Position numbers and translations under genes: made by a program. A stretch of 60,271 bases of DNA from Deltaproteobacteria bacterium (GTDB lineage: Bacteria > Desulfobacterota > GWC2-55-46 > UBA9637): the NCBI GenBank assembly GCA_016195725.1, contig JACPZB010000066.1, forward strand, positions 1 through 60,271, written 5' to 3'. The notes under the pieces were generated by a model. That model was given only the letters and a program-made list of their open reading frames with translations, was not told the DNA's origin and ran no database searches. Below, in pieces: positions 3,683 to 56,815 of this stretch. Each line of letters begins with the position of its first letter. Positions within the stretch are counted from its first letter, which is position 1.

Positions 3683-3727
3683 AAGCGCAGTTGTTGTTTT
3701 GCCGCCATGTTATGCTAGATGTATATT

Positions 3728-4966
3728 TTATCTTTCCGTTGCCGCCATTACCCCTGCAACCCATCCGGTTGAAAATGCAGCCTGAAGATTGTAGCCGCCT
3801 GTCTTTGCGTCCACATCTATAACCTCTCCGCAGATATAAAGATTTTTTATTATCTTTGATTCCATTGTTCTGGGGTCTATCTCTTTTGTTGATACGCCGC
3901 CTGCCGTAACAATGGCTTCATCCAACGGCCTCGCCCGTGTTATGGCAAACCTCATGTCCTTCAGCAGCGCGATTAAATCCATCCTCTGTTTTTGTGTAAT
4001 CTGATGAACTTTTTTATCATGCGGTATACCGATAAGTTTTACAAAGACAGGTATCATGCTTTGCGGCAAAAGATTTTTCAGCAGGTTATCAAGATTTTTA
4101 TTGCTGTGATCTTTTATCTCGCGCAAAAATCTCAAATCCAGCTTTTCCTTTGAGAGCGCAGGTTTAAGGTCAATGGAAATCTCAACTTTGCCTTTTGCAA
4201 GGCTGTCTACAACGGTCTTGCTCAGGGTGAGGATTATAGGCCCTGAAAGGCCGAAATGCGTGAACAGCATTTCGCCGAACGCCTCGGCAATCTTTTTCCC
4301 ATCAAGATATACAGACGCATTTACATGGTTGAGGGCAAGGCCCTGAAGGTCTTTAACATGGTTTTCCTGAACCTCCAGGGGCACCAGCGCCGGCCGTATG
4401 GAAATAATCGTATGCCCCAGTTTTTTCGCCATATCATAACCGTCGCCTGTCGAGCCTGTCTCAGGATATGATGCGCCGCCGGTAGCAAGGATTACCGCAT
4501 CTGCATGAAAGATACCTTTATTTGTATCAACGCCAATGGCTTTATTATCTTGCATGAGTATTTTTCCTACCGTTGTATCGGCAATTATCTTTACGCCATG
4601 CTTATTCAGATATATTACCAGCGCTTTCACCACATCCTTTGCGCTCCCCGATAAAGGGAATACACGCTTGCCCCTTTCCAGCATGGTCTTTACGCCGATG
4701 GATTCAAAGAAGCCGATAAGGTCGTCGCTGAAAAATTTCGCAAATGCGTTTATAAGAAATTTTCCCGTAGGACCGAATGCCTCCATAAACCTATCCATAT
4801 CTTCGCCGCTGGTTAAGTTGCATCGCCCTTTGCCGGAGATTGAAATCTTTATGCCTAGGCGCGGCATCTTTTCAAGCAAAGTAACATCTGCGCCAAGCTC
4901 CGCAGCTCTTCCTGCCGCCATGATGCCGGCGGCGCCGCCGCCTATTACAATAAGCTTTTTAGCCAT
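3728..4966 (-). CDS. HI0933/BaiN-like NAD(P)/FAD-dependent oxidoreductase
   Basis: 412-aa ORF with N-terminal dinucleotide fold VIGGGAAGIMAA. The C-terminal GEVIDVDAKTGGYNLQAAFSTG is typical of the HI0933 flavoprotein family. Confidence 0.8.
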   Translation of the reverse strand: MAKKLIVIGGGAAGIMAAGRAAELGADVTLLEKMPRLGIKISISGKGRCNLTSGEDMDRFMEAFGPTGKFLINAFAKFFSDDLIGFFESIGVKTMLERGKRVFPLSGSAKDVVKALVIYLNKHGVKIIADTTVGKILMQDNKAIGVDTNKGIFHADAVILATGGASYPETGSTGDGYDMAKKLGHTIISIRPALVPLEVQENHVKDLQGLALNHVNASVYLDGKKIAEAFGEMLFTHFGLSGPIILTLSKTVVDSLAKGKVEISIDLKPALSKEKLDLRFLREIKDHSNKNLDNLLKNLLPQSMIPVFVKLIGIPHDKKVHQITQKQRMDLIALLKDMRFAITRARPLDEAIVTAGGVSTKEIDPRTMESKIIKNLYICGEVIDVDAKTGGYNLQAAFSTGWVAGVMAATER

Positions 4967-23012: not shown

Positions 23013-23972
23013 TTGACAGCCATTTTAAGTCATGTTTATAACCATACCGTGAAAAGCAACCTCCTATCGCATGTTGCACTTCTTGTGGCGTTGTTGGCGT
23101 TTTCTGGGTGTGCCTCCCTGGGCATCGCAGTAGGGGCGCCCCCAGGCGAAGAAGCCGTGCAGGTAAAGTCCTATATCAAGGTCCAAAGGCCGGCCGTGTC
23201 TTCTTTGACGGTGGAGGTCGCCAAATCCAGCTACACCGAGATGCTTAACAAGGGATACGCACGAATGGGGACAATCCAATGCGATACCTACATCGGCACG
23301 CACGATAGCGCCAAGCAGTACCTGCTGCGAGAATCTCAGAAAAACGGCGCTGAGGTAGCTTGGATAGTTATGTACGACAATCAAAAAAGCGTGAAAGTCG
23401 GTGAGGCAGGAAGCGGAACCGGTTGGTCCGGAGGGTCGTTTGGCCAAGGCCATATGTACTCTTACAGTTATAAGGAGAAGTATCTAGATTACAAGTACAT
23501 AACAGGGATCGCAACCTTGTTTGTACGCGACCCCGCACTTGCCGCAAGACAACTGAAAGAGGGGAAAGCGTTGTGGGAGGCGGTAGCAGCAGGCAGAAAA
23601 GAGGAGCAACAGATCCTGATCGGCAAACTTTCCAAAATGGAAGATACGATACGTGGATATGATGATTCCTTGTTTGGAGAAGATTTAGGAAATGAAAGAC
23701 AAGATGTCCTAGATAGGCTAACAGGGCTCAAGACATGGCTCGTGACTGGCAAAAGTCCAAGTCAATATAACTATGGGCGTCTGACATATGAGAAATGGTG
23801 GATGGCGTTGAGCAATTCCCTTCCCTACAGTTGGCGCTATGGTAAGCATATTAAGCAGGCAAAGCAGGCAGTCCAGCTCATGATGGATGTCGAGCAGTAT
23901 GCTAAAGATAATCGGACACTGTTTGACTACTACAAGTTGCTGGAGTCGACCGATAAAATACTTTTGTACTGA
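23013..23972 (+). CDS. Hypothetical lipoprotein
   Basis: Lipobox LLAFSGC about 20 aa after a candidate GTG start at 23049. The ORF lies in a visibly G+C-richer segment. No family is recognised. Confidence 0.6.
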   Translation: MTAILSHVYNHTVKSNLLSHVALLVALLAFSGCASLGIAVGAPPGEEAVQVKSYIKVQRPAVSSLTVEVAKSSYTEMLNKGYARMGTIQCDTYIGTHDSAKQYLLRESQKNGAEVAWIVMYDNQKSVKVGEAGSGTGWSGGSFGQGHMYSYSYKEKYLDYKYITGIATLFVRDPALAARQLKEGKALWEAVAAGRKEEQQILIGKLSKMEDTIRGYDDSLFGEDLGNERQDVLDRLTGLKTWLVTGKSPSQYNYGRLTYEKWWMALSNSLPYSWRYGKHIKQAKQAVQLMMDVEQYAKDNRTLFDYYKLLESTDKILLY

Positions 23973-24229
23973 CGTAGCATCACATGATGCCGATTTCTCG
24001 CACCGGCGATTTGCTGGGAGCCTGTTCGGGCTGCCCTTGTCGGATGCGACGGTGCTGGCGATCAACGAGGAAGCCAGGACGCTTCTGGCTCCGACCGCGG
24101 CTAATTCATTTCTGTTCGACTACGGCGTGCTGTGGGATCCGGGAAAATTCATTTTTAATTAGTGGTTCTTGAGCCTCTCTTCCGGCGCAAGTATTGGCTT
24201 GATGAAGAGGGAGCAGAGGGGGGTCGTAT

Positions 24230-24568
24230 ATGCCGGCGCGCTCCGAGCGGATCTATATTTGTCCGGACAAGAGCGGCGATCCCGGCCGGATCATGGTTTT
24301 TCCTGCCTGGTGGGATCGCAGCGCGTTTTTGGAAAGGTACCGCAATCGCGAGATCGATCCCGGGAATCCGATCGACGTCAACGTTGCGTATTTGCTGAGT
24401 TCCGCTGAAGCCATCGCGTGGAACGAACAGTGCGCTAAACGTTACTCCAAGGATTTCCCGGGCGGCATGCCGAACGTCACAGGAGCGGCCCGCGAACTGG
24501 AGTCTGTCCTTATGAATGCATCGTGGGTTATCGTGGAATCCTACGAATGGGAATCCGGCATGGACTGA
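24230..24568 (+). CDS. Hypothetical protein
   Basis: 112-aa ORF preceded by GAGGGGGG. It is the most protein-like of several overlapping ORFs in a G+C-rich block. Confidence 0.4.
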   Translation: MPARSERIYICPDKSGDPGRIMVFPAWWDRSAFLERYRNREIDPGNPIDVNVAYLLSSAEAIAWNEQCAKRYSKDFPGGMPNVTGAARELESVLMNASWVIVESYEWESGMD

Positions 24569-24718
24569 AAAGGGGACTCCCATTAAAAGGCACCCATTAA
24601 AAGGCACCCTGTCAAGAGAAAAAACTAACCCGTAGCAAGAAAAAAAGGTTTTTCTTGTTCATGTTTCAGCGCTGGGAGAAATAAGGGGGACAACACATCC
24701 CAATTCTTTTCTTTGGCA

Positions 24719-24964
24719 TTATCTTCCTTCAAAGACCAGCCGCTCTATCTCTTTTTCTGTAATTTTCATTTCCCGCGCCTTTTTTACTCCATATCTCTGC
24801 AGCAGCCGAAACTCTTTTGTTAGCTTTTCCTGCTTATAAAATGAAAACATCTCCCTGAAAAACTCGCTTATTGTCTCTCCCTTTTCTTTTGCTATTTCTT
24901 TACATTCCTCAGCAGTTTTGGGCGGCAGGGAAACGGTCATTACTACTCTTTGGCGTGACGACAT
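24719..24964 (-). CDS. Ribbon-helix-helix (CopG-type) antitoxin-like protein, orphan
   Basis: 81-aa ORF with an N-terminal strand VVMTVSLPPKTAEECKEIAKEKGETISEFFREM typical of RHH antitoxins. No intact toxin gene follows it. Confidence 0.55.
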   Translation of the reverse strand: MSSRQRVVMTVSLPPKTAEECKEIAKEKGETISEFFREMFSFYKQEKLTKEFRLLQRYGVKKAREMKITEKEIERLVFEGR

Positions 24965-25151: not shown

Positions 25152-26378
25152 ATGTCTCTTAAACAAATAGAAAAAATACTTTCTGAAAAACTCAATGACC
25201 TTAAGGTAAAAGGAGCTTTAAAAGGCAAGGAAAAGGTCATCACAGATATTCTTCCGGCAAAGAACGGCTGCGGCCCCCGCTATCTTCTTGCCGGTCATGG
25301 AGACAAAGAATTTTTGCGCATGAACTCCAACTCATACCTGGGCCTCTCCTTAAATAAAGATGTTATACAGGCTGAGGAAGAGACTTGCAGAAGATTCGGC
25401 GCAGGCCCCGGCGCTGTCCGTTTTATAAGCGGTACATACGAACCTCATGTGGAATTAGAAAAAAAACTGGCGCATTTTCACAGCAGAGAGGCGGCCATGA
25501 TTTTCAACTCTGCCTATTCAACTGTTATGGGGGTACTTCCACAGTTTATTACTGAAGAGACTCTCGTAGTAAGCGACGAGTTAAATCATAATTGCATTAT
25601 CAATGCAATCAGGCTTTCCAAGCCTGCAAACAAGGCTATATACCGCCATCTTGATATGAGAGAGCTTGAGCGCATTCTTAAAGAGAATACTGGCCATGCA
25701 AAAAGGGCTGTGGTGGTAACAGACGGCATATTTAGCATGAGGGGCGATTATGCGCCTTTAGATAAAATTGTAGAAATCTGTAAAACCTACGAATCAGAAT
25801 ATGAGGAAGGCATTATCACAGTCCTTGATGATTCTCACGGTGTCGGTGCATTCGGTAAGACAGGCAGGGGAACAGAAGAGCATACCAATACACGGGTGGA
25901 TATTCTCGTGGCAACCCTGGGAAAGGCGCTGGGGGTGAATGGCGGTTATGTGGTGTCAAGCAGAACGGTTATCAACTATCTCAGGGAGACAGCGCCCTTT
26001 TATATCTATTCAAACCCCATTACCCCTCCTGAGGCAGCGGCAGCGCTCAAGTCTCTTGAAATCCTTGACAGCTCTGAGGGAATAAAGCTCCTTGAAAGGA
26101 TGAAAAAACTTGCAGTGCACTTAAGGGAAGGGTTTAAGCAAATGGGATATGAAACAATTCCCGGCGAGCATCCTATTGTCCCGCTTATGGTGAGGGATAC
26201 ACAAAAGACTTCTGAAATGGTTAAGTATCTTTTTGACAACGGCATTCTGGCTACAGGACTTAATTTCCCCGTTGTCCCGAAAGGAGATGAAGAGATAAGG
26301 TTCCAGATTTCTGCCAGCCATACTGAAAGGGATATTGATTATCTGCTGGGATGTTTGAGAAAAATAAAAACAGCCTGA
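25152..26378 (+). CDS. kbl: Glycine C-acetyltransferase (2-amino-3-ketobutyrate CoA ligase); BioF-like alternative not excluded
   Basis: Alpha-oxoamine synthase family. It has NSNSYLGL, a DDSHGVGAFGKTGRG motif and the PLP-lysine context TLGKALG. The ATG at 25152 is preferred over the ORF start at 25080. Confidence 0.75.
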   Translation: MSLKQIEKILSEKLNDLKVKGALKGKEKVITDILPAKNGCGPRYLLAGHGDKEFLRMNSNSYLGLSLNKDVIQAEEETCRRFGAGPGAVRFISGTYEPHVELEKKLAHFHSREAAMIFNSAYSTVMGVLPQFITEETLVVSDELNHNCIINAIRLSKPANKAIYRHLDMRELERILKENTGHAKRAVVVTDGIFSMRGDYAPLDKIVEICKTYESEYEEGIITVLDDSHGVGAFGKTGRGTEEHTNTRVDILVATLGKALGVNGGYVVSSRTVINYLRETAPFYIYSNPITPPEAAAALKSLEILDSSEGIKLLERMKKLAVHLREGFKQMGYETIPGEHPIVPLMVRDTQKTSEMVKYLFDNGILATGLNFPVVPKGDEEIRFQISASHTERDIDYLLGCLRKIKTA

Positions 26379-27094
26379 GAGATAACGCCGGCCCCACGTT
26401 TATGTGTTTTTAATCCAGACAAACCTGAAATTTACACAATCTACTTTATACCATCAGGGCCTTCTTCTGTATTCTGAATGCTGACTCATGGATTCCATTA
26501 TTTCCACCCCTTTTATTAGCTGCAGGTTCATGGGTGTTTCTTTCCATTCCTCTAAGTACGACTTCCTCGAAAGATGTTTATTTTATAATCACCGATGGTC
26601 AAAAATCAGGCAGCTTTTTCGATGAGCAACATATTTTCAGTGTAATATGTTGATTTTTTACTGATAGTGAACGATGGCATTAAATTTGCATTGTTTTATG
26701 TTGGAAATTACTTGATTCACTTTTGAGAGTTGCAGACCGGTTGCGAGTCAAGACATAAACATTTTTGGGAATTTTTTCTTTGTCCGGGACCGGCCTTGCG
26801 ATGTTAGCAAGCATGGGATTGTTTTGCTGTTGTTTGTAAAGGGACAACAGCACCTATAGTCAGCGACATAAATTTGTAGTCTGCCGATCCCGTTTAAATA
26901 CATAACGGGACAAATTTATCGGTGATTTTAAAATACGTCCATAAATGGGCACACTATATCTACTTATTTTTATCGTTCACTATAAAGGGCAGTGCAACAA
27001 AATTTAGATCGTTTGCCCTTGCTCCACTCTTTTCACTACAGCAGATATGGCGAGGGTGATGGGGTAAAATGTAACGATTGTTTTTTCGTCTGTA

Positions 27095-27130
27095 TTAACC
27101 CAAAAAATGCATTTGCATTTTTTGGCAAAA
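27095..27130. repeat. 36-nt hairpin element, copy 1 (TTAACCCAAAAAATGC-ATTT-GCATTTTTTGGCAAAA)
   Basis: 11-bp perfect stem CCAAAAAATGC/GCATTTTTTGG with a 4-nt loop. It is near-identical to 31037-31072. Confidence 0.85.
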
Positions 27131-27215
27131 GGTGATTAGTCCAGTACGACGGTTACAACGCAGTAATCGTGAAAGTGTTTGAATAAGGTAATGACGCCTT
27201 ATTCCCTATAACGCG

Positions 27216-27235
27216 GAAAATGCGGATGCATTTTC
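27216..27235. promoter_or_regulatory. Palindrome GAAAATGC-GGAT-GCATTTTC, a candidate operator
   Basis: 8-bp perfect inverted repeat sharing the AAAATGC/GCATTTT core with the hairpin element. It lies about 215 nt upstream of the HAO-like gene. Confidence 0.4.
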
Positions 27236-27448
27236 TGACAAATGCAAGTCACTGACAGATATCTCTCGGACATCTTTTGAGAGCGCTTATGTCAGGAAGC
27301 TACTCAGAAGCAGGCTTCTGCTCTGATCTTGCTTTTGCCCCGAAAAATATTAATTCGGGTTTAAAGGGAATGGGCGTTTTTTTTTGCCGACATACTGTCT
27401 GTGTGAAGAGGTTTTTTCATATTGATGTTGTGTATAGAAAGGAGTTGT

Positions 27449-28777
27449 ATGAAGAAGAATTTTACGTACGCGCTTATCTTTTTGCTCTTATGCGCTGTTT
27501 ACTCCAGCAGTTTTGCCGCGGATGAAGGGCTGCCGCTTCCACTGAAGAGTTATCATAAAAGGAATACGTCTGTTACCGAGAAGTGGAAGGAGGCGGGGAG
27601 GGGGTACTTCAATCCATACGAGTATAAACCTCCCAAGGTTGAGGGAGCCGGTACTGACTGCTTAAAGTGCCACAAGGTTTTGACTCCTACGGTGGTAAAG
27701 GACTGGGAGGACAGCAAGCATTTCAAGAAAGACGTGGGCTGCACGAATTGTCATAACGACCATTCAAACCTCATCATGCCGACTCCTGATACTTGCGGAA
27801 AGTGCCATGCCGCGAGGACAATGCAGCACAGGGGAGGGAAACATGGTGTAGGCTGGAAAAATGTAATTGCGGCTGGAGGCAAAGGGGGCGCGGCAGGCCG
27901 ATACCTTGCCCAGTATTCCGAGATGCAGGAAGGCGGCTGTGGGACATGTCACAGCATTGAGACTAAATGCGATTCATGCCATACAAGACACGCCTTCAAA
28001 CCGAAAGAGGCGAGGGAGCCCGATGCGTGCGGCACATGTCACATGGGTCCCGACCATGCCCAAATTGAGTATTACGAATCCTCAAAACACGGTGTCATCT
28101 TTAAGGTTGAAGGCAAAGGTTTTGAAGACGGCGGCAGGGCGCCGACATGTGTGACATGCCACATGTCCGGAGGCAATCATGATGTGAGCCAGGGCATTTC
28201 CATAGGCGGGGCATCTCAAGGCAAATTCATCGGCCAGACAAACAGCGGGAACAGTCAGAGAAAAAACCCCAACGGGATATCGATGAATGAGATTACAGGC
28301 GAGGATTTCACGCGGGAGAGGGACAAGATGCTGCGTGTTTGCATTAACTGCCACTCAAAGAGATTTGCGGAGCATAAGCTTTCAATCGCGGACGGTGTAA
28401 AAATAGCGAGTGATGCCGTTGCCGGCGAGGCTATAAAGGAGATTGTTGACCTCTATAACTCAGGGCTTCTTAACCCGATGCCGGATGACCGGCCTGAGAA
28501 CCCATTCGCTGGTTTTAACTTAGTGCTTACATCGCACCAGCTTTATGAGCAGACATCCGGCATAGAGGCGTTGTACTTTGAGATGTACAAGTTTGACCTT
28601 GTGCATGCATGGAAGGGCGCTTATCACTTCAGTCCTGACTGGACACACTGGTTCGGCAACGCGCCGATGAAATTGAAACTGGCAAGGATAAAAGACATGG
28701 CAAACCAGTTAAGACGCCTTAATAAATTGGAGCTCAAACTCAACGTCAAACCGGAAAAGGTTGAGTTCGGAGAATAG
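27449..28777 (+). CDS. Octahaem cytochrome c of the hydroxylamine oxidoreductase (HAO) family, probably without the cross-link tyrosine
   Basis: Signal peptide MKKNFTYALIFLLLCAVYSSSFA follows a GGAG site. There are 8 CXXCH motifs. Collinear blocks resemble Nitrosomonas HAO (YKPP; MPTPDTCGKCH; CGTCHSIETKCDSCHTRHAF..REPDACGTCHMGPDH..YESSKHG; APTCVTCHM; CINCHSKRFA). Confidence 0.85.
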   Translation: MKKNFTYALIFLLLCAVYSSSFAADEGLPLPLKSYHKRNTSVTEKWKEAGRGYFNPYEYKPPKVEGAGTDCLKCHKVLTPTVVKDWEDSKHFKKDVGCTNCHNDHSNLIMPTPDTCGKCHAARTMQHRGGKHGVGWKNVIAAGGKGGAAGRYLAQYSEMQEGGCGTCHSIETKCDSCHTRHAFKPKEAREPDACGTCHMGPDHAQIEYYESSKHGVIFKVEGKGFEDGGRAPTCVTCHMSGGNHDVSQGISIGGASQGKFIGQTNSGNSQRKNPNGISMNEITGEDFTRERDKMLRVCINCHSKRFAEHKLSIADGVKIASDAVAGEAIKEIVDLYNSGLLNPMPDDRPENPFAGFNLVLTSHQLYEQTSGIEALYFEMYKFDLVHAWKGAYHFSPDWTHWFGNAPMKLKLARIKDMANQLRRLNKLELKLNVKPEKVEFGE

Positions 28778-28782
28778 CGGCG

Positions 28783-29406
28783 ATGAGACATTTATTGCCA
28801 TTCATGATTATATTGATAACGCTCTCATCCGCGGGGGCGGCTGTGCTGCCGCGCGCCGGCGCATGCGGAAGCTGTCATGTTGATAACTTCCGTGAATGGG
28901 AATCTTCCGCGCATTCACGCTCAATACTGGGGGAGCGATTTCGCAAAGCGCTGAAAGAGCATCTCCTCAGGGATGGCACGGACGAGGGTAGTTTTTGTTT
29001 CAGATGCCATGCGCCTGAGTTGATTATCTCCGGGGATGTCTTTGAAGCTACGAAGATGGCGCTGAACGGGAAGGCGCCGGCCGAAGGGGTTACATGCGTT
29101 GCCTGCCACAGTGTGGAATCCGTTAAAGGGGGGAAGCCTGTATACGACCCAGGCGATTTTCCCGGCTATCACAGGGTGAAAGACCTGAGGTCTCTTGACA
29201 GGGCCGGGCTCTGCACGACCTGCCACAGCGTTTATAAGCAGAAGAATATTGTCAGGGAAGAGAAGAGCGGTTTTTTAATGCGCAATGTTTCATGGGTCAC
29301 GGAATTATTCCACGCAAGAAGAAGCAAGAAGAGCGACCACGGTTTTTCTGACACCATTATTGTGGAAAAGGAAGGGGAAGGATGTCCGGGCGTCAAGAGA
29401 GATTAA
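28783..29406 (+). CDS. Membrane-anchored or secreted tetrahaem cytochrome c (NapC/NrfH- or c554-like)
   Basis: N-terminal hydrophobic helix and 4 CXXCH motifs (CGSCH, CFRCH, CVACH, CTTCH). The first motif context, CGSCHVDNFREWESSAHS, resembles NrfH/c554-type haem 1. Confidence 0.75.
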   Translation: MRHLLPFMIILITLSSAGAAVLPRAGACGSCHVDNFREWESSAHSRSILGERFRKALKEHLLRDGTDEGSFCFRCHAPELIISGDVFEATKMALNGKAPAEGVTCVACHSVESVKGGKPVYDPGDFPGYHRVKDLRSLDRAGLCTTCHSVYKQKNIVREEKSGFLMRNVSWVTELFHARRSKKSDHGFSDTIIVEKEGEGCPGVKRD

Positions 29407-31040
29407 ATATTATCTTATTGCGTGGACTATCAGCGTTAGGGGCATTTCTTTTACTGATATCAGCCGCTATGGCTCGGTCCGGCAATTTCAGTGAGGGAGA
29501 AGGGAGCAGGGAGTGCAGGAACTGCCATCAGGAAAATAAGAGACCGGACAGATATGATGCCGTCAGACCCTGGCTCAAGAGCCGGCATGCCGAGGCAGGT
29601 GTTGCGTGTGTCGACTGTCATCTTAAAAAAGAGATAGAGAAAGAGGATTTTTATAAGGCCGTTACCGCAACGACGAAGGAGAGCGCCCACGCCTTTATGG
29701 TGGAGAGGCCGGCCGCGAAAGAGACAAAGATGTATTTTGTCGGCGTATGCGGCGGGTGCCACAAAGAAAGGCTTGACGAGTTCAATGCGAGTGTGCACGG
29801 CATGGCAAATCAGAAAGGGAAAAGCGTAAGCTGTATTGACTGTCACGATCCGCATAGTGTCTCTGCGGCATCCAGCAGGGATTCACGGCTGTACAAGGGG
29901 AATGACCTGAAAACCTGCGGGAGATGCCACAAGGATATGCTGGACTCATACATGAGCACATTTCACGGCAAACAGTTTGTCCTCGGCAATACCCTTGTGC
30001 CGACATGCGTATACTGTCACATGGGGCATGAATTGCCGCCGGATGCGCCGGGATCGGCCATCAATGCTAAGAATGTAGGCAATATCTGCGCGGGCTGCCA
30101 CGGCGAGGCAGTCGCGCTGGGACCGGATGCGGACGAGATGATGATACACTCTCTCAGCAGGGATTCTACAAGAAAGGTCATCCACTTCAGGGACCCTGTC
30201 TCGTTCGGGCCGTTCTCCATCGCCTCTGTAATAAACTCATCGTATATCGCGATGATCATAGGGGTCGTAGGTTTCTTTACCCTTATGTCAACCCGTGACT
30301 TTGTAAAAAAGACAAGGATGGCGCATACCCACAAACATGATAACGGCAGCGAAGAAAAGACGATAAAGCGTTTTTCTCTCGCATGGAGGTTTCAGCACTT
30401 TTTCTGGGCAATCTCATTTATCGTTCTTGCTGCAACAGGCCTGTCCCTCAAGTTTCCGGATTCGATATTCTCGAGGGCTATCGTGTGGGTTGCAGGAGGA
30501 CCCGCGATGAGGTCTGTTGTCCACCGCATCGCAGCGGTTGTTTTTATAGGAACGGCGCTGGCGCATCTGAGCCCGTATATTTTGTTCCGCAGGCTGCCTG
30601 GAAAGGTCATTCTTGCAAAAAAAGATTTCCTCGACGCACTGCTGCATCTCAGCTACTTGTTCGACAGAACCGAAAATATGCCGCTCATGGGGAGATATAC
30701 GTGGTATCAGAAGCTGGAATATTGGGCCACGGTTGTGGGCGCCTGCATAGTCATATCAACCGGTTTCCTTATGTGGGGCTTTGCCCCCCTGATCAAGAAG
30801 ATACCCATTTCGCTCTTATATTACGCGCAGATGATGCATGGGTGGGAGGCCATACTCGCGGTTCTCGTTATCTTTGTGCAGCATATATATCAGACTGTTT
30901 TAAACCCGCTTGTTTTCCCGATGGATTTCTCATGGCTTACCGGAAGGACGAAATACGCGGTGATGGAACATGAACATCCCCTTGAGTTGATGGAGATTGA
31001 GTCTAAGAAGGGAGGCGGAGATCGTGAAGGCGCATCTTAA
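29382..31040 (+). CDS. Fusion of a periplasmic heptahaem cytochrome c domain with a FdnI/HydC-type dihaem cytochrome b membrane domain (CbcL-like)
   Basis: 7 CXXCH motifs in residues 45-240, then about 5 TM helices. Conserved His sit in TM segments (RFQHFFW; HRIAAVVF; MHGWEAILAVLVIFVQH), as in formate dehydrogenase gamma or NiFe-hydrogenase cytochrome b. Confidence 0.75.
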   Translation: MSGRQERLNIILLRGLSALGAFLLLISAAMARSGNFSEGEGSRECRNCHQENKRPDRYDAVRPWLKSRHAEAGVACVDCHLKKEIEKEDFYKAVTATTKESAHAFMVERPAAKETKMYFVGVCGGCHKERLDEFNASVHGMANQKGKSVSCIDCHDPHSVSAASSRDSRLYKGNDLKTCGRCHKDMLDSYMSTFHGKQFVLGNTLVPTCVYCHMGHELPPDAPGSAINAKNVGNICAGCHGEAVALGPDADEMMIHSLSRDSTRKVIHFRDPVSFGPFSIASVINSSYIAMIIGVVGFFTLMSTRDFVKKTRMAHTHKHDNGSEEKTIKRFSLAWRFQHFFWAISFIVLAATGLSLKFPDSIFSRAIVWVAGGPAMRSVVHRIAAVVFIGTALAHLSPYILFRRLPGKVILAKKDFLDALLHLSYLFDRTENMPLMGRYTWYQKLEYWATVVGACIVISTGFLMWGFAPLIKKIPISLLYYAQMMHGWEAILAVLVIFVQHIYQTVLNPLVFPMDFSWLTGRTKYAVMEHEHPLELMEIESKKGGGDREGAS

Positions 31041-31572
31041 CCCAAAAAATGCGGTTGCATTTTTTGGCAAAACAGTGCTGATAATCGCGGCGATTCTATT
31101 GACATTGCCTGTTCATACATGGAGCGATTCCTGCGACGAGTGCCATCTTCACAGGTCGCTTGTCAGGGAATCTGACGGGGAATCTGTAACAGATGCGGAC
31201 GCGCCGGGAACGCTTGCCGGATTCCATATTATGGAATTCAAAGGCGAGGAACGGACATCGGCATGCCGCAGGTGTCATGGAAATTTGCAGGAGTCCAATA
31301 AACTTCCGCGTTCGGAGGCATGCCTCAAGTGCCATACGAGGGGCAAGGCAGCGCAGGGGGATCGGCGCATGGTATTCCATGCGGAAAAGAATCACTGGCC
31401 TCTGGAAAAGGTGTCGTGCGCTGACTGTCACAGGGCGCACATAAAGGGCAACCCTGCCGTAAAGTTTCTTACGACAAATGTGGTCAGCGTATGCAGCGGA
31501 TGCCATGAAAAAACTTTTAATTTGAAAGAAACTGCGTTGAAGGAGAGCGCTTTGCCTGATTCAGGCCAGTAG
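31024..31572 (+). CDS. Pentahaem cytochrome c
   Basis: 5 CXXCH motifs (CDECH, CRRCH, CLKCH, CADCH, CSGCH). The GTG at 31024 lies 8 nt after GGAGG, and the alternative GTG at 31075 lies after the hairpin element. Hydrophobic signal LIIAAILLTLPVHTWS. Confidence 0.7.
   Translation: MKAHLNPKNAVAFFGKTVLIIAAILLTLPVHTWSDSCDECHLHRSLVRESDGESVTDADAPGTLAGFHIMEFKGEERTSACRRCHGNLQESNKLPRSEACLKCHTRGKAAQGDRRMVFHAEKNHWPLEKVSCADCHRAHIKGNPAVKFLTTNVVSVCSGCHEKTFNLKETALKESALPDSGQ
31037..31072. repeat. 36-nt hairpin element, copy 2 (TTAACCCAAAAAATGC-GGTT-GCATTTTTTGGCAAAA)
   Basis: 34 of 36 nt are identical to copy 1, and both differences are in the loop. It starts at the stop codon of the preceding gene. Confidence 0.85.
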
Positions 31573-31595
31573 ATTAATAAAGGAGGCTAACTGTA

Positions 31596-32909
31596 ATGTC
31601 TTCAATTGAGCAGATAGGGGAAATCAGGGTTGCAATCGATACCGTATGGGTAATACTCTCGGCCGTTCTTGTTTTCGTAATGAACGCCGGTTTTGGAATG
31701 CTTGAGTCGGGCCTGTGCAGGTCAAAAAATACCGTGAATATATTTTCAAAGAACATAGTCATCTTTGCCATAGCAGGCCTTACTTTCTGGCTTGTCGGAT
31801 TCGGCCTCATGTTCAGCGATGGCTCGTTTTTCATCGGCTCGACAGGATGGATGCTCACGGGTGAGGATAACAGTCCCGCCGTGGCCGGGCAGTATTCCGG
31901 TATTTTCAGCTCGCTGGGCTGGACTGCCGTTCCCCTCTACGCAAAGTTTCTTTTCCAGATGGTATTTGTAGCCGCCTCGGCGCACATTGTGTCCGGCGCG
32001 GTGTCAGAGAGGATAAAGTATTTTTCATTTATTGCCTTTTCCGTTGTGCTGGTCGCCATCATCTATCCCATAACAGGTCACTGGATATGGGGCGGAGGAT
32101 GGCTGGATTCGATGGGTTTTGTTGATTTCGCCGGCTCCACGGTGGTCCATTCGGTAGGAGGATGGGCAGCGCTTACCGGCACGATCGTGCTTGGCCCGCG
32201 TATGAACAAGTTTACCAGGGACGGGAGAATAAACCCCATTCCCGGCCATAACCAGACAATGGCTGCGCTTGGTATGTTTCTGCTCTGGCTCGGATGGTTC
32301 GGTTTCAACGCCGGAAGTGCAATGGCCGCAAAACCGGAGACGATAGCGCTGGTTGCCGTCAATACCACACTGGCGGCCGCAGCCGGCGTTTTAAGCGCGA
32401 CAATCGTATCAGAGATACTCATAGGCAAACCGGACCTGAGCATGATGGTTAATGGCGCGCTTGCCGGCCTTGTCGCAATTACTGCCGGCTGTTCAGCGGT
32501 AAACATAGGCGGCGCTGTGATAACAGGCCTTGTGGCCGGCATACTTGTGGTCTACTTCATAATATTCCTTGACAGGCGCAGGATAGACGACCCTGTAGGG
32601 GCAATACCCGTGCATCTGATAAACGGCATCTGGGGCACTGCGGCCGTGGGGCTGCTTGACCGGGAGGCGGGGCTCTTCTATGGAGGCGGCATATCGCTTT
32701 TTATTACGCAGCTTATCGGGATTGCGGCTGTCGGCGTTTTTGTCGGCGGAGGCACGTATGTTCTCTGGCGCCTTATCGGTCTTGTTATGGGACTGCGGGT
32801 AAGCCAGGAAGAAGAGTATGTCGGACTCGACATAAGCGAGCACGGCATGGAGGCATATCCTGATGCATCCGGACCCAGGGGTTTATACGGAAAACCGGGA
32901 AAGTTCTAA
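31596..32909 (+). CDS. amt: Ammonium transporter (Amt family)
   Basis: 437-aa ORF with about 11 TM helices. It has AGFGMLESGLCRSKN, FAGSTVVHSVGGWAAL and WGTAAVGL signatures. AGGAGG precedes the ATG, 23 nt after the pentahaem gene. Confidence 0.9.
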   Translation: MSSIEQIGEIRVAIDTVWVILSAVLVFVMNAGFGMLESGLCRSKNTVNIFSKNIVIFAIAGLTFWLVGFGLMFSDGSFFIGSTGWMLTGEDNSPAVAGQYSGIFSSLGWTAVPLYAKFLFQMVFVAASAHIVSGAVSERIKYFSFIAFSVVLVAIIYPITGHWIWGGGWLDSMGFVDFAGSTVVHSVGGWAALTGTIVLGPRMNKFTRDGRINPIPGHNQTMAALGMFLLWLGWFGFNAGSAMAAKPETIALVAVNTTLAAAAGVLSATIVSEILIGKPDLSMMVNGALAGLVAITAGCSAVNIGGAVITGLVAGILVVYFIIFLDRRRIDDPVGAIPVHLINGIWGTAAVGLLDREAGLFYGGGISLFITQLIGIAAVGVFVGGGTYVLWRLIGLVMGLRVSQEEEYVGLDISEHGMEAYPDASGPRGLYGKPGKF

Positions 32910-32930
32910 CCGCGGCGGGAGGCGGAAAGC

Positions 32931-32957
32931 GGGGACAGATTTGAAATCTGTCCCCAA
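32931..32957 (+). repeat. 27-nt hairpin repeat, copy 1 (GGGGACAGATTTGAAATCTGTCCCCAA)
   Basis: 10-bp perfect stem with no T-tract, between amt and the next gene. The second copy at 35155-35181 has 3 mismatches. Confidence 0.7.
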
Positions 32958-32972
32958 CTATCGGAGGACGAA

Positions 32973-33650
32973 ATGGCCTGGCTAATATTCTTTGTTTTTT
33001 GGATTGTCTTTCTCTGGCTCTATAAATACAGCGAGCGGCACAAGCAGCACAGGATTCTGGAGATGCAGAAGGACAGGCATTCGGACTACGGCCAGATGAA
33101 AAAAGAGTTCGACGAGAGCATGGAGCTTTTCAATACCACTGCTGATTTCAAAGCCAGGCTTGCGCATATTGATAAGGCCATAGAATGTCTTAAGTGGATG
33201 GAAGAGATGATCCCCGGCAAAGAACATTCCTCTGAAAAGCTTCCGCAGATAATGTCGCTCAAGCAGGCGCTGATATATTCCGGCATAAAGGCGCAGTTCG
33301 AAAACGCAATGAATAACGCGAAAGAGGGAAAGCTCCTCGTGGCAAAGGTCAATCATGCAACCGCCGCTCAATCCATCCTCAACAAAGGGCTGAGCCTCGG
33401 CATTGACAGAAAGACCCTTGCGAGGGAGATTGAAGAGGCCAACAGTTTTATCAACAGGATTCAATACGATGAATACTTTTCAAAGGCAAAAAAAGAAGAG
33501 GAAAAAGGGAATATAAAGACAGCCATAGATCAGTATCAGGTGGCGCTTTACTTTTTAAAAATGACCAGCATGGGGGGCGAAGACCATGAATCGCTGGTAA
33601 AAGAGATGGAAGGGAGGATACAGAAACTTTATGAAAGAGGCATTGTTTAA
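32973..33650 (+). CDS. Hypothetical membrane-anchored helical protein
   Basis: 225-aa ORF with an N-terminal TM helix (WLIFFVFWIVFLWLY); the rest is predicted helical. GGAGG precedes the ATG. Confidence 0.55.
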   Translation: MAWLIFFVFWIVFLWLYKYSERHKQHRILEMQKDRHSDYGQMKKEFDESMELFNTTADFKARLAHIDKAIECLKWMEEMIPGKEHSSEKLPQIMSLKQALIYSGIKAQFENAMNNAKEGKLLVAKVNHATAAQSILNKGLSLGIDRKTLAREIEEANSFINRIQYDEYFSKAKKEEEKGNIKTAIDQYQVALYFLKMTSMGGEDHESLVKEMEGRIQKLYERGIV

Positions 33651-33670
33651 AGCGATCACAGGAGGTAATT

Positions 33671-35113
33671 ATGGAAACATCTGACATGCAGGAAAGGATG
33701 AAAGGTTTCGGGGAGGCCATAAAAAAAACGGAATTTCCGTGGAAGGCAGTCCTGTTTGTTTTGATTACAGGGTTTATTGTCGTAGGCGGCCTGTTCGGTC
33801 TCCTGGAAATCAATGAGGCCGGCTACATTACGGTCAAGCAGTCCCTGTTGACAGGCAAGGTTACAATCGTTTCAGAGCCAGGTATGTTCTGTCAGTGTTT
33901 CGGAACGATAACAAAATACAGGGAGGCGGGAACCTTCAAATTCGCTCAGACCGAAGAAGCAGCCGGAGGCAAGGAAAAGGCGAGGCCTAAAAAGGGCAGG
34001 GGGAGCGACCCGGAGGTATCCGATGAGATAGAGGTGCGATTCAACGATGGTTCCATTGGGTGGATATCCGGAATGGCGCTTTTCGATCTTCCCAAGGATG
34101 ATGAAAAACTCGGGCTTCTCCATATGAAATTCAGAGGCTTCAGGAATCTCATTGAGGCCGGAATAATGCCCACTATTAAAGAGTCGGTTGTGCTCACGGC
34201 CGCGCTCATGAGCTCCGGAGAGTCATATACGACAAAAAGGGCCATATTCTCGGAGTGGTCAAGGGATCAGATTGAGAAGGGCACATATATGACCGAGGAA
34301 TTGGTAAAAGAGGAAAAGGACCAGAGGACCGGAGATGTTACCAGAAAGAGCTTTGTCAAGATAAAGACCGATAACAGCAGGCTCCTGAGAAATGAAAACC
34401 CCCTTGAGAGGTACGGCATAAAGTTCAGACAGTTCCAGGTAACGGAGATCCGCTATGAGCCTGAGACGGAAAATCTTATAAAGACAAAAATGGAGGCGAT
34501 GCAGAAAACCATCGCAGCCAAGATTTCCGCAGAGAGGGCAATACAGGAAAGGCTTGCGGCAGAAGAGCTCGGCAAAAAGAACGTTACAGTCGCCGAATAT
34601 GAGGCCATGATAAAGAAGAAGAAATCTGAGGTCGAGGCAGAAGAGGCAAAGGCAGTGGCCGTCATTGAGGCGAATAAGAAACTTGAGGTGGGAAAACTGG
34701 AGAGGGAAAAGGAGACCAATGCCGCCTCAAAAAAAGTTGAGATTGAAAAACTTGAGAAGGCCAGGGCGGTTATAGAGGCGCAGAAGGCGCTTGACGTGGC
34801 GAGAATAAACGCACAGAGCGCTGAAAGCAAGAAAAGGGCGGACGTCCTCGAAGGGGAAGGGCTTGCTGAAAAGAAAAAGCTTATTTACAAAGCCGATGGA
34901 GCGTTACAGCAGAAACTTGATGCTTATGTCAATGTTATGACAGTTCTCGCAAAGGAGCTTGGCAAACAGAAGTGGGTGCCTGATATCACCATGAACGGCG
35001 GGCCGCATGGAACCGCGGACGGGAACGCGGCAATGGGCTTTATGAATCTGTGGATGATGAAGACCGCCAAAGAGCTTGGAGTTGAACTGGTGAATGAGAA
35101 AAAGAATCAGTAA
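33671..35113 (+). CDS. Membrane-anchored SPFH/flotillin-like protein with long coiled coil (tentative)
   Basis: 480-aa ORF with an N-terminal TM helix, then a band-7-like beta region (GYITVKQSLLTGKVTIVSEPGMF) and an A/E/K-rich coiled coil of about 150 aa. Confidence 0.45.
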   Translation: METSDMQERMKGFGEAIKKTEFPWKAVLFVLITGFIVVGGLFGLLEINEAGYITVKQSLLTGKVTIVSEPGMFCQCFGTITKYREAGTFKFAQTEEAAGGKEKARPKKGRGSDPEVSDEIEVRFNDGSIGWISGMALFDLPKDDEKLGLLHMKFRGFRNLIEAGIMPTIKESVVLTAALMSSGESYTTKRAIFSEWSRDQIEKGTYMTEELVKEEKDQRTGDVTRKSFVKIKTDNSRLLRNENPLERYGIKFRQFQVTEIRYEPETENLIKTKMEAMQKTIAAKISAERAIQERLAAEELGKKNVTVAEYEAMIKKKKSEVEAEEAKAVAVIEANKKLEVGKLEREKETNAASKKVEIEKLEKARAVIEAQKALDVARINAQSAESKKRADVLEGEGLAEKKKLIYKADGALQQKLDAYVNVMTVLAKELGKQKWVPDITMNGGPHGTADGNAAMGFMNLWMMKTAKELGVELVNEKKNQ

Positions 35114-35148
35114 CCGGGATAGAATGCTCGCGTTGAGTATCGTGGACA

Positions 35149-35198
35149 GAAATTGGGGACAGATTTCAAATCCATCCCCAATTTCTTTTTGATTTTTT
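35149..35198 (+). terminator. Intrinsic terminator after the SPFH-like gene
   Basis: GAAATTGGGGA-15 nt-TCCCCAATTTC followed by TTTTTGATTTTTT. It embeds copy 2 of the 27-nt repeat. Confidence 0.75.
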
Positions 35199-35211
35199 AC
35201 GGTTTTTACTT

Positions 35212-35330
35212 CTATCTAACCTTCACCCTCACGCCATCCTTTATCGAATCATCGGGGTGGGCTATGACAAACTTGCTTTCACTGAGCCCTGAAATAATCT
35301 CTCCAGTTTTTTCTTGTCTTTGGCCTGCCT
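35212..35330 (-). pseudogene. 3'-terminal remnant of an RND/ABC efflux periplasmic adaptor (HlyD/MFP family) gene
   Basis: The minus-strand frame reads ...GQRQEKTGEIISGLSESKFVIAHPDDSIKDGVRVKVR*, a typical MFP C-terminus. There is no start codon and no upstream body. Confidence 0.55.
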
Positions 35331-35386
35331 GTGTGCCTGTCTGTGCGTTGCACGCAGACAGGCTCAAATCCTGCGTTTGCCCCAAA

Positions 35387-35428
35387 AAATAAAAACTAAG
35401 TGCATTTTTTGGGTTAGATGAAAATATT
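35387..35428. repeat. Hairpin element, copy 3, inverted orientation with a longer loop (TTTGCCCCAAAAAAT-13 nt-ATTTTTTGGGTTAG)
   Basis: The flanks match the reverse complement of copies 1 and 2 (TTTTGCCAAAAAATGC...GCATTTTTTGGGTTAA). A 10-bp stem is retained. Confidence 0.65.
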
Positions 35429-55748: not shown

Positions 55749-56815
55749 TTCAATGAGCAATTGCAACACAATGAGATAAGACCTCAAAAGGCATCTGAAA
55801 GTCAAGACACTTTTTGGGTCGGTCGTTGATTAAGATATTCTATACGGTTGAGTTGATGTTGGGTGATTTTAACAGAATCCGTCTTCTTTGACAAAAAGCG
55901 GCGAACTAATCCAACAGCATTCTCAACAGAGCCTTTTCCCAGGCTATGACAAGGATTGCAAAAATAGGCCTGCCCCCGAATGCATCTATCGGGGGACTGT
56001 GTTCCAAGACTTTTATTGGTCTTTAGATGCTCTACATTCTCTGAACCGTTGTCATAGGTTATAGTCCGCCTCATGAAAGGCGGATACGATTGAAGGCTGT
56101 TTTCAATTGCCTGAGATAATAAGGCAGACGACTTTTGTTTGATCTTTTTAAGATGAATGATTTGACTTGTGCGTTCCAGCATAACAGCCACAGCTGCCTG
56201 ACTTTGACGTGATATTATCGTATCGGTTTCCCAATGGCCAGGCTGTTTGCGTTCTTCGACTGATTTTGCTATGTGCTCAATTGACCTTCGCACCGGAATA
56301 TGGCTTGTACACTGTTTACGAGGATTCCCACGTGGCAGTCGTTTCCTGTGGGCATGTGGCAAATAAACTGTTAAATCTTCTTCGTATTGTTTTTTGTTAT
56401 AGATAAACCGGTATATGGCCTCATGACCGATGGATACATTCGGATGATCCTTAGACCATCGTCCTGAGATGAGTTTTGGCGACCAGCCAAGTTTTAGTTT
56501 TTCAACCACATAGGCCATAAGCTTTTGGTCTTTGAGTCTCGGCCGCTGACCCAGGACTTGCATTGTCGCTCTTTTGCGCCTTTATCTGCTTTATGAGGCA
56601 GATAGCAATCATAGACTGGTGATTTGTTGCGTTTCGGTTCCCGTGAGATTGCGCTTTTGTCCCGGTTTATGATTTTCGCTATTTCAGTTATTTTGAAGCC
56701 TTGAGCGCGAAGAACAGCTATCTTCTCTCTCAACGCTTGCGAAGTATTTATAATTTTGCTTGTGCATTCACTTTAGGATACCGTCCTTTCCTAAGTGTTG
56801 CGCTTCCTTATTGAA
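55749..56815 (-). mobile_element. IS30-family insertion sequence (1067 bp) with frameshifted transposase
   Basis: Terminal inverted repeats TTCAATGAGCAATTGCAACAC (55749-55769) and GTGTTGCGCTTCCTTATTGAA (56795-56815) match at 17 of 21 positions. The transposase is split into ORFs 56733-56494 and 56563-55802 (WSPKLISGRW, HWETDTII, TYDNGSEN, GSVENAVGLVRRFL). Confidence 0.8.
55802..56733 (-). pseudogene. IS30 transposase, interrupted by one frameshift near 56560-56580
   Basis: The N-terminal HTH part and the DDE part lie in different frames with a 70-nt overlap of the two ORFs. Confidence 0.75.

Follow-up and report, generated by a model that had tools for sequence, protein, structure and literature searches.

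A conserved seven-gene operon joins a predicted reductive-type HAO-family cytochrome to an ammonium transporter

In this study we describe an operon in a 60,271-nucleotide stretch of DNA from a Deltaproteobacteria bacterium (Desulfobacterota; GenBank contig JACPZB010000066.1). The whole stretch is called the window below. Four genes for multihaem cytochromes, the first of which encodes a member of the hydroxylamine oxidoreductase (HAO) family, are directly followed there by amt, the gene for an Amt-family ammonium transporter, and by two further conserved genes. This rare, conserved operon points to a previously undescribed bacterial route for making and taking up ammonium. A sequence-only reading of the same DNA had noted five same-strand genes, g1 to g4 and amt, as one operon. 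We recovered all five where it had placed them, with the haem-motif counts it had given (8, 4, 7 and 5 CXXCH motifs, that is 24 c-type haem sites across g1-g4), but the extent of the operon had been drawn too narrowly: the unit consists of seven genes, with g6 and g7 after amt, and of an upstream regulatory leader (26675-27448). In the public record g1 is annotated merely as a ‘cytochrome c3 family protein’. The genes and the hairpins that follow them are:

27449-28777, + strand: g1, periplasmic HAO-family octahaem cytochrome c of predicted reductive type (442 aa, 8 CXXCH)
28783-29406, + strand: g2, periplasmic tetrahaem cytochrome with a cytochrome c554-type domain (4 CXXCH)
29382-31040, + strand: g3, candidate membrane quinol dehydrogenase with a heptahaem c domain and an FdnI/HydC-type dihaem cytochrome b
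31024-31572, + strand: g4, pentahaem cytochrome c, membrane-anchored or secreted (alternative TTG start at 30997)
31596-32909, + strand: amt, Amt-family ammonium transporter (437 aa, PF00909)
32931-32955, + strand: hairpin GGGGACAGATTTGAAATCTGTCCCC between amt and g6, without a T-run
32973-33650, + strand: g6, orphan protein of 225 aa with an N-terminal transmembrane (TM) helix and an all-helical soluble domain
33671-35113, + strand: g7, SPFH/Band-7 membrane protein of 480 aa with a long coiled-coil tail
35155-35200, + strand: terminator-like hairpin with a T-rich tail 3' of g7, read from the sequence

Layout and conservation of the operon

The genes are tightly packed. The 5-nt gap between g1 and g2, the 25-nt overlap of g2 and g3 and the 23-nt gap between g4 and amt, with AGGAGG before the amt ATG, had all been described correctly. 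At g3/g4, where an overlap or a 35-nt gap had been offered, the best reading is a 17-nt overlap with GTG 31024 placed 8 nt after GGAGG. A separate promoter or terminator has no room before amt: 23 nt are available in the window, and seven of eight related loci with called genes have anything from a 4-nt overlap to a 41-nt gap at this junction (144 nt in L091; the related loci carry numbers, L001 and so on). A scan of 26300-35400 for sigma-70 promoters and terminators gave counts not above those of shuffled sequences and no convincing internal signal. The gaps between amt and g6 measure 23-63 nt and contain a Shine-Dalgarno sequence; in the other loci they are 23-54 nt long and hairpin-free. 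We considered hairpin 32931-32955 as a terminator splitting amt from g6 and g7 and rejected it: it has no T-run and is lineage-specific, being found in the window and L004. It is related to a hairpin at 35155-35180 (GGGGACAGATTTsAAATC..TCCCCAA), and neither is conserved in other lineages; judged by this likeness, the hairpins after amt and g7 are probably a small repeat of the repetitive extragenic palindromic (REP) type. The gene 3' of g7 lies on the opposite strand, and the probable end of the operon is the hairpin with the T-rich tail after g7.

The linkage of the HAO-family gene to amt recurs in related genomes of two phyla. In 13 of 13 loci whose g1 is at least 68% identical and which hold enough downstream DNA, amt lies directly 3' of g4. 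The complete order g1-g2-g3-g4-amt-g6-g7 was found in L001, L002, L004, L085, L088, L089, L090, L091 and L092, as well as in L009, an Acidiferrobacteraceae metagenome-assembled genome (MAG), and in L014, a Gammaproteobacteria MAG; the 13 loci also include L003, in which g6 alone is deleted from the operon, and L008, where the contig stops inside amt. All hosts are Desulfobacterota and Gammaproteobacteria MAGs (with the labels Desulfocapsa, Acidiferrobacteraceae and Chromatiales), and the flanking genes are unrelated between loci. Beside more distant HAO homologues, in contrast, amt was found within 10 kb in none of 75 loci (Methanoperedens, Nitrospirota, Desulfuromonadales, Thermoleophilia and others), and the sister HAO clade, at 58-62% identity, is monocistronic. 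Scanning metagenomes with g1 added only four loci and no new complete instance.

Two of the related loci deserve a remark of their own. L003 was rejected as an amt-less counter-example: tblastn finds amt there at 93% identity, and the gene calls are misleading. In L003/L005 (4336-7025), which represents a strain from Hainich groundwater, amt lacks its 3' end and g7 its 5' end, g6 is missing altogether, and the downstream genes are rearranged compared with the window and with the co-occurring L004; this might be a deletion or an assembly artefact. In L011, a Syntrophorhabdales MAG, the monocistronic HAO-like gene of the sister clade (2870-4228; 61% identical) adjoins a gene at 424-2607 for a 727-aa haem peroxidase-family protein (PF00141; KatG-like by length), a hint that this clade may belong to a stress or detoxification setting.

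The HAO-family enzyme and its electron supply

The placement of g1 in the HAO family is borne out. The protein matches PF13447 with an E value of 2.4e-32 over profile positions 1-269 of 269. Among solved structures it finds the anammox HAO-like proteins 6t5e (7e-46), 4n4j (3e-44) and 6h5l (2e-41), together with hydrazine dehydrogenase (HDH) and N. europaea HAO (E ~1e-35 to 2e-35); with these HAO/HDH/HOX matches go eight CXXCH motifs in conserved order. The same search returned no tetrathionate-reductase or octahaem nitrite reductase (ONR) chain at E <= 0.01, and in place of a grouping with the tetrathionate reductases, which had been raised as a possibility, g1 falls with the HAO-family enzymes. 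Its N-terminus is a Sec-type signal peptide. The best 120 homologues of g1 come from Desulfobacterota, Gammaproteobacteria, Methanoperedens, Nitrospirota and others. An AlphaFold2 model of g1, made without haems, reached a pLDDT of 64.9 and was not used because of this low confidence.

The residues around the active site indicate the direction of catalysis. The pair D202-H203 in the CHMGPDH motif of g1 is invariant across 20 homologues and aligns with CHMGIDH of kustc1061; we take the Asp-His pair of this CHMGxDH motif to be the catalytic Asp/His of the HAO and kustc1061 structures. At the position of NeHAO Tyr467 (counted along chain 4fas_A) and kustc1061 Tyr451, g1 has His400, which is invariant in 20 g1 homologues down to 42% identity; Kustc0458 (HAOr) has a Trp there. 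The tyrosine that in the oxidative HAO/HDH/HOX enzymes (P460 enzymes) is crosslinked to the catalytic haem of the adjacent subunit is hence missing from g1. The Tyr-less HAOr of Kuenenia reduces nitrite, NO and NH2OH and oxidises neither NH2OH nor N2H4 (PMC8042395), and the passage of the same paper that cites Haase 2017 gives four recombinant, Tyr-less epsilon-Hao enzymes as reducing nitrite and NH2OH. In a 2025 HAO phylogeny, His at the Tyr position is listed as the ‘reductive’ state (PMC12758564). Because His400 replaces the haem-crosslinking Tyr, the alignments support a classification of g1 as a reductive-type HAO, and the reductive direction that the sequence-only reading had favoured gains backing from this exchange.

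It might still be argued that the system operates oxidatively, with Amt supplying or exchanging ammonia/ammonium, g1 oxidising hydroxylamine or a related N compound and the electrons passing into the quinone pool. Such a scheme would fit the order of hao, a c554-like cytochrome gene and a gene for a membrane quinone-reactive cytochrome, which mirrors hao-cycA-cycB of ammonia oxidisers. However, an invariant His stands in place of the crosslinking Tyr, and the tested Tyr-less HAOs do not oxidise NH2OH or N2H4. The window holds no amo or other hydroxylamine-generating genes either, and regulation of the nitrogen-starvation type, described below, argues against burning fixed nitrogen. We regard oxidative operation as highly improbable.

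The three genes after g1 provide a candidate path for electrons. The product of g2 matches PF13435 (cytochrome c554) over the full-length profile (E 1e-9) and, weakly, the c554 structure 1bvb. In g3, seven CXXCH motifs within residues 45-240 are followed by a cytochrome b domain at residues 330-510 (PF01292), which also matches TIGR01583 (E 1e-14) and, over residues 324-505, FdnI (1kqf_C, E 5e-5). There are five C-terminal TM segments, and His339, His381, His486 and His501 lie in TM segments in the FdnI pattern. The FdnI/HydC-type b-haem membrane domain noted before thus holds for g3. Judging by these motifs, its architecture is CbcL-like: a multihaem c domain joined to a HydC/FdnI-like dihaem b domain, with the four predicted haem-ligand His present. 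The product of g4 (PF14537) carries a hydrophobic segment at its N-terminus and five CXXCH motifs. Matches of g2 and g3 to NapC/NrfH were sub-threshold. All four cytochromes carry signal or anchor sequences, which place their chemistry in the periplasm.

The transporter, its neighbours and nitrogen control

The Amt protein is a canonical family member in its core residues. It matches PF00909 (E 7e-119) and TIGR00836 (406 bits against a cut-off of 343), and an alignment with Sd-Amt1 shows the twin-His, the Phe gate, the Trp/Ser site and the conserved Asp all present (motifs FAGSTVVHSV, IPVHLING, FQMVF, GWFGFNAGS, HWIWGGG and VDFAG). The HAO-linked Amt proteins are 73-94% identical to each other and at most 64% identical to their next relatives; by sequence, the Amt of the window belongs to a clade that is found only in the g1-g7 operon. 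This clade has 18 diagnostic invariant positions, three of them clustered in TM3: the invariant V125, A127 and H130 take the place of the A, T and T that 109 of 109 nearest generic Amts show. In the alignment, H130 falls on Thr-104 of Sd-Amt1, one of the ligands at the N1/N2 sensing site, and puts a third His near the twin-His pore. The two next-closest Amts with examined loci are encoded in amt-glnK pairs. Beside the HAO-linked amt we found no P-II gene in the window (tblastn) or in any HAO-linked locus, and His130 may show that the specificity or gating of Amt has been retuned without GlnK.

Could this Amt be mainly an ammonium sensor or regulator, perhaps with g6/g7 in the place of GlnK, which tunes the cytochromes by periplasmic ammonium? 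Its best solved relatives are indeed the ammonium receptors Sd-Amt1 and Ks-Amt5, it shares the receptors' Phe25, Glu29 and Asn45 and the exit-narrowing Asn269, it has no adjacent glnK, unlike the two next-closest Amts with examined loci, and the operon encodes in g6 a membrane-anchored helical protein unique to it, whose soluble domain is probably cytoplasmic. However, the receptor signature QX6EX15NX2D[F/T]X54-60TX2[S/T] is matched at only four of seven positions (N30, E37, N53, I56, F57, H130 and S133; Asp48 is replaced by Ile, Thr104 by His and Gln22 by Asn), and the 437-aa protein has no fused transducer domain. For these two reasons we do not class it as an ammonium receptor. Generic relatives carry nearly the same residues, and the two with examined loci are GlnK-coupled transporters. 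A sensing Amt therefore seems improbable to us.

A further alternative is a variant of the reverse hydroxylamine-ubiquinone redox module (HURM): g1 would take nitrite no further than hydroxylamine, Amt would import NH2OH/NH3OH+, and its reduction to ammonium would fall to a hybrid-cluster protein in the cytoplasm whose gene lies elsewhere. Passage of hydroxylamine through AmtB homologues has been proposed for Nautilia profundicola, where transcripts of hao, napC, amtB and hcp increase on nitrate (PMC3701875), and the pore-adjacent V125, A127 and H130 of the HAO-linked Amt could mean a changed substrate. Against it, the selectivity residues of Amt are canonical, and hcp was found neither in the window nor in the flanks of any related locus. 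Free NH2OH would moreover be an unexpected product, because the recombinant epsilon-Hao enzymes, in the passage of PMC8042395 mentioned above, reduce nitrite and hydroxylamine alike. We consider this variant doubtful, if less so than a sensing Amt.

The last two genes, like amt, go with the cytochromes. Homologues of g6 form only 28 clusters among 5.8 billion, each at least 58% identical, and every examined context of g6 is this seven-gene operon. Its AlphaFold2 model (pLDDT 87.5) is all-helical with seven helices, and a fold search with this model gave no match at E <= 0.001. By the positive-inside rule the soluble domain of g6 is probably cytoplasmic. The product of g7 matches PF01145 (E 4e-8), has one TM segment (residues 20-48), gave no matches in a PDB sequence search, and is 59-90% identical across all complete loci.

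The region upstream of g1 carries the following elements:

26675-26690, + strand: sigma-54 (-24/-12) promoter-like element TGGCATTAAATTTGCA, 1 mismatch to TGGCAC-N5-TTGCW
27149-27170, + strand: ANTAR-type hairpin P1 (ACGGTTAC-AACGCA-GTAATCGT) with a hexaloop
27181-27204, + strand: ANTAR-type hairpin P2 (GAATAAGGT-AATGAC-GCCTTATTC) with a hexaloop
27193-27207 (5' arm), 27365-27376 (3' arm) and 27377-27385 (T9), + strand: leader terminator, whose arms are paired by RNAfold

The sigma-54 element is found upstream of g1 in the window and in 12 of 12 related loci with upstream DNA (L001, L002, L003, L007, L008, L009, L085 and L088-L092). In the window it lies 759 nt from the g1 ATG, compared with 195 nt in the closest relative L003. 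Three stretches inserted into the leader (26695-26962, 27003-27144 and 27212-27337, ~536 nt in total), when it is compared with that of L003 (89% identical), account for this distance. Two designs accompany the element. In seven of the eight gamma-type loci (L001, L007, L008, L009, L088, L089 and L090), NtrC-type sites (TGCACC-N5-GGTGCA, at most 2 mismatches) stand ~63 nt upstream of the -24 GG, at a background of 0.016 per 300 nt for the same number of mismatches; a second site follows ~104 nt upstream in six gamma-type loci and ~82 nt upstream in L008, while L085 has a single weaker site ~104 nt upstream. L003 and L092 lack such sites and have an ANTAR-type leader instead. As in these two loci, the latter more distant, the leader of the window combines dual hexaloops with an overlapping terminator. 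Each hexaloop of the window starts with A and has G as its fourth base, and P2 and the 5' arm of the terminator have 27193-27204 in common. Across both strands of the 60-kb window P1/P2 is the sole dual-hexaloop pair of this kind; shuffled sequences give an expectation of 0.05. In L003 the terminator arms fold into one compact hairpin with T8 behind it; in the window the 126-nt insertion 27212-27337 interrupts the terminator loop.

Dual hexaloop hairpins are the recognition motif of ANTAR proteins and a design of nitrogen regulons (PMC3369931). In Geobacter, nif, glnK and amtB are governed by RpoN/GnfM promoters together with antitermination leaders for the ANTAR protein GnfR, and the GnfR site CAGGCAANGGCGCC is a GGC-hexaloop-GCC hairpin (PMC2995071), which closely resembles P2 of L092 and L003; P2 of the window bears a resemblance to it as well. 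Two regulatory designs in two phyla therefore indicate control by nitrogen limitation, and the idea that the operon serves assimilation, raised from the sequence alone, is backed by these sigma-54/NtrC and ANTAR-type signals. In Rfam, only two tRNAs of the window passed the gathering threshold, and the leader had no matches at E <= 1. The palindrome AAAATGC-N4-GCATTTT (27104, 27217 and 31046; exact) was rejected as an operator or NtrC site: it is absent upstream in all related loci, its two leader copies sit in insertions absent from L003, and the copy at 31046 is native g4 coding sequence shared with L004. A ~36-nt sequence with this perfect palindrome, TAACCCAAAAAATGC-N4-GCATTTTTTGGCAAAA, occurs at 27098-27133, 27212-27250 and 31040-31078. 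It is native at the g3 stop/g4 start (also in L004), and near-identical and more diverged copies lie in the two leader insertions.

Octahaem and pentahaem nitrite reductases usually serve respiration, and the cytochromes might likewise form a nitrite/NO reductase for respiration by dissimilatory nitrite reduction to ammonium (DNRA) or for detoxification under nitrosative stress, with amt as a passenger without mechanistic coupling. For sulfur-metabolising Desulfobacterota without NrfA, a DNRA function of HAO-like genes has been suggested (PMC5276818), and the labels of the host MAGs suggest sulfur-cycling bacteria. However, amt, g6 and g7 are strictly co-inherited with the cytochromes in two phyla and absent beside all other HAO clades, the sister clade being monocistronic; the promoters and leaders are of the nitrogen-control type, with no recognisable anaerobic or NO-responsive sites; and no nap or nar lies nearby. 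Although we hold such a respiratory or detoxifying role to be unlikely, it is the strongest of the alternatives weighed here.

The remainder of the window adds little to this picture. Motif, Pfam and tblastn scans confirmed the absences reported from the sequence alone (amoCAB, CXXCK, nirK/nirS and glnK): the 60-kb window holds no CXXCK motif, no further multihaem open reading frame (ORF) and, by tblastn, no P-II/glnK gene, and no amo, nir, nap or hcp is among its 46 Pfam-annotated ORFs, all independent ORFs of at least 150 aa included. The remaining annotated ORFs have housekeeping functions only. We noted an ORF with a weak integrase-core (rve) match (55802-56563, - strand), a small CopG/RHH protein (24719-24964, - strand) and a region at 23700-24600 that is crowded with overlapping ORFs without a family match and may be degraded mobile DNA. 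A gene 25 kb from the operon (1681-2295, + strand) encodes a small protein of 204 aa that combines ferredoxin motifs with a 4Fe-4S domain of the nitrite/sulfite-reductase type.

A possible route to ammonium and its relation to known systems

Taken together, the operon might encode a nitrogen-limitation-induced, quinol-driven reduction of nitrite, NH2OH or NO to ammonium in the periplasm, with import of the product by a dedicated Amt, a reading that we consider probable to a modest degree. Here g3 would oxidise quinol through the FdnI-type dihaem b domain to which its part with the seven c haems is joined, and electrons would pass from g3 to the pentahaem g4 and the c554-like tetrahaem g2 and on to the octahaem g1. 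Lacking the Tyr-haem crosslink, g1 would act as a reductase that makes ammonium from nitrite, with NH2OH and NO as further probable substrates. The co-translated, operon-specific Amt would take in the ammonium for assimilation by glutamine synthetase and glutamate synthase (GS/GOGAT), and g6 and the SPFH protein g7 might organise or regulate the membrane assembly as accessory or scaffolding parts. We infer in this way the substrate, the product, the electron path and the direction, as well as co-transcription, the inducing condition and the roles of g6 and g7.

Several observations weigh against this assimilatory scheme. The in vivo product of Kuenenia HAOr is NO, not ammonium (PMC8042395); since a Tyr-less HAOr makes NO, the product of g1 (NH4+ or NO) is not readable from the missing Tyr. 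An FdnI-type b domain that oxidises quinol would spend proton-motive force instead of generating it, if the redox-loop model of FdnGHI applies here. The closest solved relatives of Amt are the sensor Amts Sd-Amt1 and Ks-Amt5, and the invariant His130 near the pore is unexplained. On the side of regulation, an NtrC-type site upstream of g1 was not found in the window or in L002, and the 60-kb window encodes no ANTAR protein or enhancer-binding protein. A comparison of the window's P2 with the Geobacter GnfR consensus gave 3 mismatches, which is not significant; it was dropped as sequence evidence, and only the structural motif is used. Regulation in the window strain may also have been altered, because the insertions lengthen the leader and split the terminator.

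If the scheme holds, a larger claim might be made: that the operon represents a new class of assimilatory nitrite/hydroxylamine reductase, a metabolon of a reductive HAO, a 16-haem/cytochrome-b module, a specialised Amt, the SPFH scaffold g7 and the orphan g6, in which the product (ammonium or even hydroxylamine) is channelled into the cell. It would replace the sirohaem enzymes NirBD/NirA in some sulfur-cycling Desulfobacterota and Gammaproteobacteria and would have spread by horizontal transfer. We put this forward as a tentative possibility only. Reductive HAO-type enzymes are widespread in genomes, but apart from anammox bacteria and a few Campylobacterota one can mostly only guess at what they do. 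The operon gives one HAO clade an unusually explicit context, with a fixed Amt partner, two designs of the nitrogen-starvation-control type and a complete candidate path from quinol to enzyme. If the reading is true, periplasmic multihaem chemistry would serve nitrogen assimilation besides respiration, and nitrite/hydroxylamine scavenging would be overlooked by surveys limited to nirBD, nirA and nrfA.

Several parts of the operon have counterparts in known systems. The HAOr of Kuenenia stuttgartiensis (Kustc0458/0457) resembles g1 in its lack of the Tyr crosslink and is a nitrite reductase, and anammox HAO-like proteins are among the closest solved relatives of g1. It differs in its dihaem cytochrome partner, its location in the anammoxosome and its provision of NO for hydrazine synthesis; it has neither Amt linkage nor nitrogen-starvation control, and its identity to g1 appears low by eye in the alignments. 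The nitrifier HURM has the gene order hao-orf2-cycA-cycB. As here, genes for a c554-type tetrahaem cytochrome and for a quinone-linked membrane cytochrome come after the HAO gene, but the nitrifier enzyme is oxidative with its Tyr467 crosslink, and the cM552 partner is of the NapC/NrfH type and not an FdnI-type b/c fusion.

For g3, the best likeness in architecture is CbcL of Geobacter sulfurreducens, an inner-membrane quinol oxidase with a multihaem c domain and a HydC/FdnI-like dihaem b domain (PMC6295460), although CbcL has nine haems compared with seven and serves extracellular electron transfer instead of standing in an HAO operon. The regulation, in turn, has two counterparts. The sigma-54 and NtrC sites of the gamma-type loci are like those of Klebsiella nasF (NtrC/sigma-54 with NasR antitermination), and the sigma-54 element with a dual-hexaloop/terminator leader in the window, L003 and L092 is like the RpoN/GnfM and GnfR control of nif, glnK and amtB in Geobacter. 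Unlike in our operon, what is regulated there is amtB-glnK, nitrogenase or a sirohaem nitrite reductase of the cytoplasm. To our knowledge, no periplasmic HAO-type multihaem module has previously been placed under NtrC/sigma-54 or ANTAR control.

A full-text search that included HAO/Hao linkage and the host taxa yielded no published description of the g1-g7 operon, although literature outside the searched library may exist. The sequence-only reading had known of no system that joins an HAO-type enzyme to Amt. As far as genetic coupling is concerned this stands, but the functional idea had been proposed before: in the reverse-HURM pathway of nitrate ammonification/assimilation proposed for Nautilia profundicola, Hao feeds Amt and the genes are unlinked (Campbell 2009; Hanson 2013; PMC2628731; PMC3701875). 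What is new here is the partner set, the genetic coupling and the regulatory wiring of a reductive HAO module. Both systems, as proposed, combine a Tyr-less HAO-family enzyme, reductive and quinol-fed in the periplasm, with Amt-family proteins that bring the N product in for assimilation. Of the features that mark epsilon-Hao systems, g1 shares the missing Tyr, and the window lacks a NapC/NrfH-type partner and hcp. Whereas Nautilia has unlinked genes and a NapC/NrfH-type tetrahaem donor, the operon of the window holds amt and two conserved genes, with no Hcp nearby, and has a CbcL-like 7-haem/cytochrome-b fusion and two extra cytochromes. As such it offers a genetically compact system for the long-standing, unproven reverse-HURM idea that Amt and Hao cooperate.

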